Position numbers and translations under genes: made by a program
The notes under the pieces: model-generated
Database searches by the model: none
Told to the model about the DNA's origin: nothing
Seen by the model: only the letters and a program-made list of their open reading frames with translations
Source of the DNA: Escherichia coli
GTDB lineage: Bacteria > Pseudomonadota > Gammaproteobacteria > Enterobacterales > Enterobacteriaceae
Assembly: GCF_003334335.1 (NCBI RefSeq)
Contig: NZ_QOWQ01000072.1
Length of the DNA: 7,660 nucleotides
Reading direction: 5' to 3' (one strand)
Shown here: in pieces, positions 1,454 through 1,606 of the stretch
Layout: every line of letters begins with the position of its first letter
Position numbering within the stretch: position 1 is the first letter of the stretch

Positions 1454-1513
1454 GATATCCCTCCCGTGTGCGTATCATCCCACGCGTACCTTGTCGTTTC
1501 TGTCTGGCTCTGT

Positions 1514-1531
1514 TGTAAAAAAATCCCCACA
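1514..1531. promoter_or_regulatory. TGT-N12-ACA dyad, candidate Ogr-type activator site of a P2-like late promoter
   Basis: Sequence TGTaaaaaaatccccACA is the only perfect TGT-N12-ACA in the 153-bp D/FI intergenic region. A -10-like hexamer GATTAT (1566-1571) lies about 46 bp downstream of the dyad centre, giving the roughly -55 activator placement known for P2 late promoters. FI start is at 1607. Confidence 0.5.
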
Positions 1532-1606
1532 GCCCGCATCAGGTGATGGCTGTGCGCCAATGGTGGATTATTCAGGCGAGCATAAACACAACTGATGGTG
1601 AATCGT

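Follow-up and report, generated by a model that had tools for sequence, protein, structure and literature searches.

The DNA analyzed here, called the window, is a stretch of 7,660 nucleotides from Escherichia coli that contains the tail module of a P2-like prophage. Another copy of this module is found in the chromosome of strain S1-CAM-02-A, located beside serS, and is 99.6% identical across window positions 76-7660. The window contains the following features, including predicted regulatory elements.

1-78, no strand assigned: end of an insertion sequence of the IS186/IS421 type, matching about 2,700 E. coli records.
72-266, minus strand: ogr-type activator gene, interrupted by the insertion sequence so that 64 of its 100 codons remain (PHROG 603, NCBIfam NF007241, Pfam PF04606).
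305-310, minus strand: predicted -10 hexamer of ogr itself, TAGAAT, overlapping the stop codon of D; a TAnAAT-like hexamer persists among relatives whose D-ogr spacers vary elsewhere.
308-1453, minus strand: gene D, a tail protein of the late control D family, 381 amino acids (PHROG 52, E = 6.5e-153; PGAP annotation of the 99.6% identical locus).
1458-1465, minus strand: Shine-Dalgarno sequence of D, GGGAGGGA, read from the sequence, 5 nt upstream of the ATG at 1453.
1474-1482, minus strand: extended -10 element of the predicted D promoter P_D, TG-G-GATGAT, recognized by its invariant columns, with a predicted start near 1467.
1511-1533, no strand assigned: predicted late-activator (Ogr-type) binding site, TGTTGT-N12-ACAGC, from sequence, pattern search and conservation.
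1543-1548, plus strand: -35-like element GTGATG, 17 bp upstream of the FI -10, its putative role suggested by conservation and fixed distance.
1566-1571, plus strand: -10 hexamer GATTAT of the predicted sheath-operon promoter P_FI, the counterpart of P2 P_F, with a predicted start near 1578-1579.
1597-1601, plus strand: Shine-Dalgarno sequence of FI.
1607-7199, plus strand: inverted tail operon FI-FII-E-T-U, from PHROG matches and PGAP annotation, as are its five genes below.
1607-2800, plus strand: FI, sheath.
2800-3312, plus strand: FII, tube.
3364-3744, plus strand: E.
About 3838/3892-6723, plus strand: T, tape measure.
About 6726/6735-7199, plus strand: U.
7205-7226, both strands: bidirectional intrinsic terminator with a 9-bp stem, positive for both strands in a terminator scan.

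The terminator closes the FI-U operon and stops read-through from the convergent tail-fibre operon, whose tail-fibre-assembly gene faces U from the other side. According to the P2 record, the order FI-FII-E-T-U-D-ogr lies on a single strand in that phage. In the present lineage, the head and baseplate operons share a common strand with D and ogr, and FI-U occupies the opposite one; the FI-U block has therefore been inverted, and D has not moved. This corrects a reading made from the letters of the window without database searches (hereafter the sequence-only reading), which had described D as relocated: it is FI-FII-E-T-U that was turned around, with the ancestral orientation kept by D and ogr. 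The same gene order is carried by P88, a viable plaque-forming phage (PMC5285337), so D must be expressed from this context.

The 153-bp spacer between D and FI contains a core dyad, TGT at 1514-1516 and ACA at 1529-1531 separated by 12 bases, which is centered at 1522.5. Both hexamers named by the sequence-only reading, GATTAT at 1566-1571 on the plus strand and GATGAT on the minus strand (atcatc at 1474-1479 on the plus strand), are located where it had placed them. Its estimate of about 46 bp from the dyad proved exact, as the hexamer centers, 1568.5 and 1476.5, are each exactly 46 bp from 1522.5. A pattern search also agreed that this is the sole TGT-N12-ACA of the intergenic region. The second occurrence in the window, a GC-rich palindrome at 7260-7277, was set aside, since it lies in the coding sequence of the tail-fibre-assembly gene and the terminator of that region is the one at 7205-7226. 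The number of TGT-N12-ACA matches in the window does not exceed chance (2 against 1.65 expected, with 105 of 200 shuffles reaching 2), and neither this pattern nor the relaxed TTGT-N12-A[CG]A is more frequent than chance would give, whether in the window or across the 47.6-kb locus. The motif count by itself is thus no evidence, and the significance of the D/FI dyad comes from its conservation.

Additional TGT(C/T) repeats at about 10-bp spacing had been pointed out next to the dyad. They do exist, with TGT at 1492, 1501, 1511 and 1514, but the copies at 1492 and 1501 are not conserved. Those at 1491-1504 were rejected as extra activator sites, since even a relative with 93% identity in its D protein does not conserve them, and the TGT at 1492 and 1501 probably arose by chance. 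Scanning 200-1700 for canonical sigma-70 promoters gave none, which is what one would expect of promoters that depend on an activator. On the FI side the -35-like GTGA is a 3/6 match, and the D side is devoid of any -35-like element.

To follow these elements through evolution, viral contigs were scanned with the D protein, yielding 594 relatives, the best 80 of which were analyzed; their D proteins are 72-99% identical over the best aligned segment. D and FI are divergent in all 80 of these best-matching loci, and ogr follows D in nearly all. The 80 loci represent 57 distinct intergenic sequences, from which 17 representatives sharing less than 93% identity overall were drawn. In pairwise comparison of these representatives, the intergenic columns are on average 48% identical, and 18 of the 153 columns are invariant. 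On the D side, A1474, T1478, C1481 and A1482 are invariant, reading TG-n-nAnnnT on the minus strand, the signature of an extended -10 for D. The core of the dyad, TTGT (T1513-T1516) together with A1529 and A1531, is invariant both in the 17 representatives and in the 57 unique relatives. Position 1530 is C or G among relatives, and most of them have AGA in place of ACA as the right half-site, which makes the dyad a partial one. In the -35-like GTGA, T1544 and G1545 are invariant, with G1543 and A1546 kept in at least 88% of representatives; in the FI -10 (nAnnAT), A1567, A1570 and T1571 are invariant, as are G1597 and G1598 of the FI ribosome-binding site. Ten positions had been fixed a priori, namely TGT, ACA and the second-position A and sixth-position T of each -10, the positions that the hypothesis of the sequence-only reading singles out, and nine of the ten are invariant (hypergeometric P = 4.6e-9).

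The distances between these elements are equally constrained. In all 57 sequences the successive spacings on the FI side are constant, with 18 bp from TTGT to A1531, 13 bp from there to T1544 and 23 bp onward to A1567. The D extended -10 stands 31-32 bp from TTGT in 57 of 57, so that the D side varies by 1 bp and the FI side not at all, and the total from -10 to -10 is 93-94 bp throughout the 57 relatives. The untranslated FI leader varies in length by up to 10 bp in the same sequences, and fixed spacings beside a variable leader are the signature of elements bound to keep their mutual register. The hexamers on the D side are never T-initial among relatives, taking forms such as GATGAT, GACCAT and AAACAT.

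Further features of the alignment were noted separately. T1561, 5 nt upstream of the FI -10 and about -17 from the predicted start, is invariant in 57 of 57 sequences and fits no assigned promoter element. An alternating CGCGCGCG tract is found just upstream of the D-promoter and P-promoter -10s in many relatives, P88 among them; the window has only ACGCGTG there. An FI start at 1595 was rejected in favor of ATG 1607, as relatives never deviate from this ATG or from GG at 1597-1598, whereas they do at 1595-1596.

The closest known counterpart of this arrangement is the P/O region of P2 itself. The P2 record (NC_001895) marks one stretch, 3057-3087, as "activator binding site; pO, pP promoters"; it lies between mapped divergent starts at 3016 on the minus strand for the P operon and 3127 on the plus strand for the O operon. 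These starts are 111 bp apart, and their midpoint, 3071.5, coincides with the center of TGT(3063)-N12-CCA(3080). As in the D/FI spacer, one partial dyad lies midway between two divergent late promoters, with its center 46 bp from each -10 center. The P2 hexamers, TAGCCT and GAAACT, are 89 bp apart from A2 to A2, the same distance as between window positions 1478 and 1567. When the window starts are predicted by placing them 7 nt after each hexamer, they fall at 1467 and 1578, likewise 111 bp apart; their midpoint is the dyad center, 1522.5, from which each is 55.5 bp away, as are the mapped starts of P2 P_O and P_P from theirs. The two regions also share weak or absent -35 elements and an Ogr-family zinc-finger activator from the same element. 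They differ in the genes served, which are P and O (packaging and head) in P2 and D and FI (tail) here, and in the right half-site, CCA in P2 P/O and ACA in the window. In addition, P2 P_P and P_O lack an extended -10, whereas the leftward D/FI promoter has one.

The FI side resembles P2 P_F in particular, which drives the same sheath operon from a site in the same orientation, with GTTGT distal. From TTGT to the -10, the distance is 53 bp at window FI and 53-54 bp in P2 P_O, P_F and P_V, and both -10s are of the GAnnAT type, GAAAAT in P2 and GATTAT in the window. The two differ in that the P2 operon FI-FII-E-E'-T-U-D includes D and nothing diverges from P_F; in the window, D has been split off by the FI-U inversion and reads away from the same site.

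Published accounts of Ogr-family activators are consistent with this geometry. Ogr binds inverted repeats centered near -55 and acts via the alpha subunit of RNA polymerase, transcription requiring both Ogr and contact with alpha (PMC3152322). TGT-N12-ACA has been given as the consensus for Ogr-family sites, and in phage Smp131 one dyad, read on both strands, was assigned to P_P' and P_O' (PMC3931495). In phiRSY1, TGTTGT-N13-ACAACA lies upstream of late operons (PMC5694545). Smp131 and phiRSY1/phiRSA1 resemble the window in having TGT-N12-ACA-like dyads upstream of late operons, by computational assignment (PMC3931495, PMC5694545). They differ in host and in site spacing (N13 in phiRSY1), and a D/FI pair appears in neither paper.

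The P/O spacers carried by the same genomes provide a second comparison. Six complete phages from five Peduoviridae genera, namely P88 (Xuanwuvirus), phiT5282H (Novemvirus), ST16-OXA48phi5.4 and Kp4845-1 (both Reipivirus), Kp4860-2 (Reginaelenavirus) and 500465-2 (Gemsvirus), each contain precisely one copy of T[GC]T-N12-A[CG]A in either spacer, D/FI and P/O alike. In every one of these genomes the half-site variants of the two spacers change together: where D/FI has GTTGT-N12-AGAAC, P/O has its reverse complement (TGT..AGA with TCT..ACA), and a full palindrome in D/FI is accompanied by a full palindrome in P/O, as seen in Kp4860-2 and in the present lineage. In E. coli G1/2, where the P/O spacer of the present lineage is intact, it contains TGTTGTAAGAGCGTGGCGACAA, with -10-like hexamers 46-47 bp to each side. 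The P/O spacers of the P88-type phages and of this lineage resemble D/FI in having the same motif, GTTGT-N12-A(G/C)AAC, once per spacer. On the O side, the P88-type phages have TGc(C/G)AT(C/G)AT about 42 bp from the center, compared with 41 bp on the D side of the window. In site orientation and extended -10, the D side matches the O side and FI matches P; the flanking genes are different. An origin of D/FI by duplication of P/O was considered and dropped: side-by-side spacers show no similarity beyond the functional elements and so offer no evidence for it.

The P/O spacer of S1-CAM-02-A, the closest complete genome, measures 66 bp and was at first a candidate for a different architecture, which was rejected because it results from a 109-bp deletion limited to that strain (locus 40320-40420 versus intact 370-528). 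Promoter and leader of O are lost together with the opening codons of the capsid scaffold gene, which leaves the activator site joined directly to O coding sequence, and a short GGCGA repeat is present at its junction; G1/2 and other strains are intact. Judged from these losses, that prophage copy is probably defective for head assembly.

The putative activator is encoded next to D. An intact copy of ogr matches Ogr_Delta (PF04606) with E = 1.6e-15, and its zinc finger (amino acids 4-51) survives in the window, where the product shares 47% identity with P2 Ogr, all of Cys4, 7, 32 and 37 being retained. The insertion sequence end that truncates the gene is found just after an IS421-family transposase gene in a K-12-like chromosome, and the intact prophage copy departs from the window sequence before position 76. 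Because ogr is cut at residue 64 of 100, activation in this strain may be lost or need another Ogr-like protein, and the prophage may have had its own late activator lost or weakened. In more than 20 relatives, inserts of 0.7-2.2 kb separate ogr from D. Together with the conserved -10 of ogr, for which the annotated P_ogr of P2 is an analogue, these inserts indicate that ogr is transcribed as a unit of its own, like its P2 counterpart, and that D is effectively a one-gene late unit. A circular scheme, in which ogr would be transcribed solely from an Ogr-dependent P_D, was rejected on the same two grounds, the TAnAAT -10 of ogr and the 0.7-2.2 kb inserts of many relatives. Across those more than 20 relatives, the D-ogr spacer looks like a hotspot for cargo insertion.

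On the evidence of sequence comparison, the 153-bp D/FI spacer is likely to act as a late promoter in both directions under activation by Ogr, after the pattern of P2 P_P/P_O. A candidate bidirectional late promoter had been proposed by the sequence-only reading, and all its sequence-level predictions hold, from the footprints in 57 relatives and the P2 geometry to the P/O twins and the position of ogr after D. One Ogr-family zinc-finger activator complex would bind the partial dyad TGTTGT-N12-ACA centered at 1522.5 and would act from about -55 (-55.5) on RNA polymerase to both sides. To the right, polymerase would use the -35-like GTGA (1543-1546) and the -10 GATTAT (1566-1571), beginning near 1578 and driving FI-FII-E-T-U. 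To the left, it would use the extended -10 TGgGATGAT (1482-1474, minus strand), beginning near 1467 and driving D. Dependence on Ogr is predicted for each direction. As ogr has its own -10, TAGAAT, the activator could be made before P_D fires. The arrangement itself would have resulted from the FI-U inversion, which set the activator site of P_F back to back with D.

The most serious competing explanation assigns the Ogr site to the sheath operon only, as the counterpart of P2 P_F. D would then be expressed from an activator-independent extended -10, at a low constitutive level or under some other control, and the mirror symmetry would simply follow from tight packing. Neither a -35 element nor an activator is indispensable to an extended -10 promoter, and the invariant TGn on the D side, unaccompanied by a -35-like footprint, means that P_D could be partly or wholly independent of Ogr. 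The same explanation draws on the FI side, where the site has its canonical orientation and the 53-bp distance from TTGT to the -10 of P2 P_F, P_O and P_V, and on the spacing, which varies by 1 bp toward D and is fixed toward FI. Nevertheless, it is judged unlikely. In 57 of 57 sequences the 31-32 bp between TTGT and the D -10 are preserved despite flanks of about 48% identity and leaders varying by up to 10 bp, and P2 P_P, a promoter ascribed to a shared site in the P2 record, has an equal distance. The O-side promoters of the same phages share the extended -10, the distance and the site. Furthermore, D is a tail structural protein, the expression of which in the prophage state would be wasteful, and its hexamers are consistently weak, the lack of an initial T suggesting a weak basal promoter. 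Under the bidirectional reading, the extended -10 might instead give D a basal, Ogr-independent level that other late genes lack.

A further explanation, that TTGT...A.A is bound by another protein (a repressor, Cox or IHF, for instance) or is a chance dyad devoid of regulatory role, can appeal to the chance frequency of the bare pattern in the window and the 47.6-kb locus. It is very improbable given a core that is invariant in diverged relatives, a motif present once in each divergent late-gene spacer of six complete phages and co-varying within genomes, and the fit to the published Ogr-family consensus and -55 geometry (PMC3931495, PMC3152322, PMC5694545). Searches at the RNA level also run against it, since no match to Rfam was obtained in the window and the D/FI spacer folds no better than shuffled sequences (z = -0.13); a reading of the spacer as an RNA element is excluded. 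A terminator-like hairpin at 1466-1489, overlapping the D -10, was treated as incidental. That D has no promoter of its own and is transcribed by read-through from a distant one, the minus-strand footprints serving another role, is scarcely credible. Nothing was found in its favor, 5.6 kb of antisense FI-U lies upstream on the minus strand, shut by the bidirectional terminator at 7205-7226, and the invariant minus-strand TG-n-nAnnnT has precisely the form of an extended -10 and precedes a strong Shine-Dalgarno sequence and the ATG by about 13 nt.

For the origin of the predicted bidirectional promoter, a tentative account is that the P_F activator site, being roughly palindromic, was co-opted in reverse after the FI-U inversion, with a P_O-like extended -10 evolving at the mirror position. 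If true, this would represent a traceable promoter birth following an operon inversion, fixed across at least five Peduoviridae genera.

The layout had been presented as an economical solution to the displacement of D, and as a new design it is not, because P2 already uses it at P/O. As an instance of that known design, the predicted D/FI pair is well supported by sequence and unsurprising, leaving the current view of P2 late gene control unchanged. No description of a D/FI late promoter was found in the literature searched, which did not extend to the primary P2 promoter papers or the P2 review; the arrangement itself is present in sequenced and classified phages, the viable P88 included. Its value lies in accounting, by an already documented mechanism, for the expression of an essential tail gene cut off from the FETUD operon in a large clade of P2-like phages and prophages, comprising Xuanwuvirus and four other Peduoviridae genera. 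Besides P2 P_P/P_O, it would offer a second natural test bed for one Ogr-bound site serving two polymerases, at once or alternately, and the exact bases for mutation are TTGT 1513-1516, A1529, A1531 and both -10s.

There is also a gain for annotation. Short open reading frames cross the D/FI promoter region, including 1443-1595 on the plus strand of the window and P88 gp50 (locus 2529-2660), annotated as a hypothetical protein. Such small frames called in the spacer are probably not genes but promoter DNA, because their conservation fits promoter elements with indels and not codons. At the prophage end, just past ogr, a Hok/Gef-family toxin gene is present both in this lineage (locus 19618-19758) and in P88 (locus 747-887).
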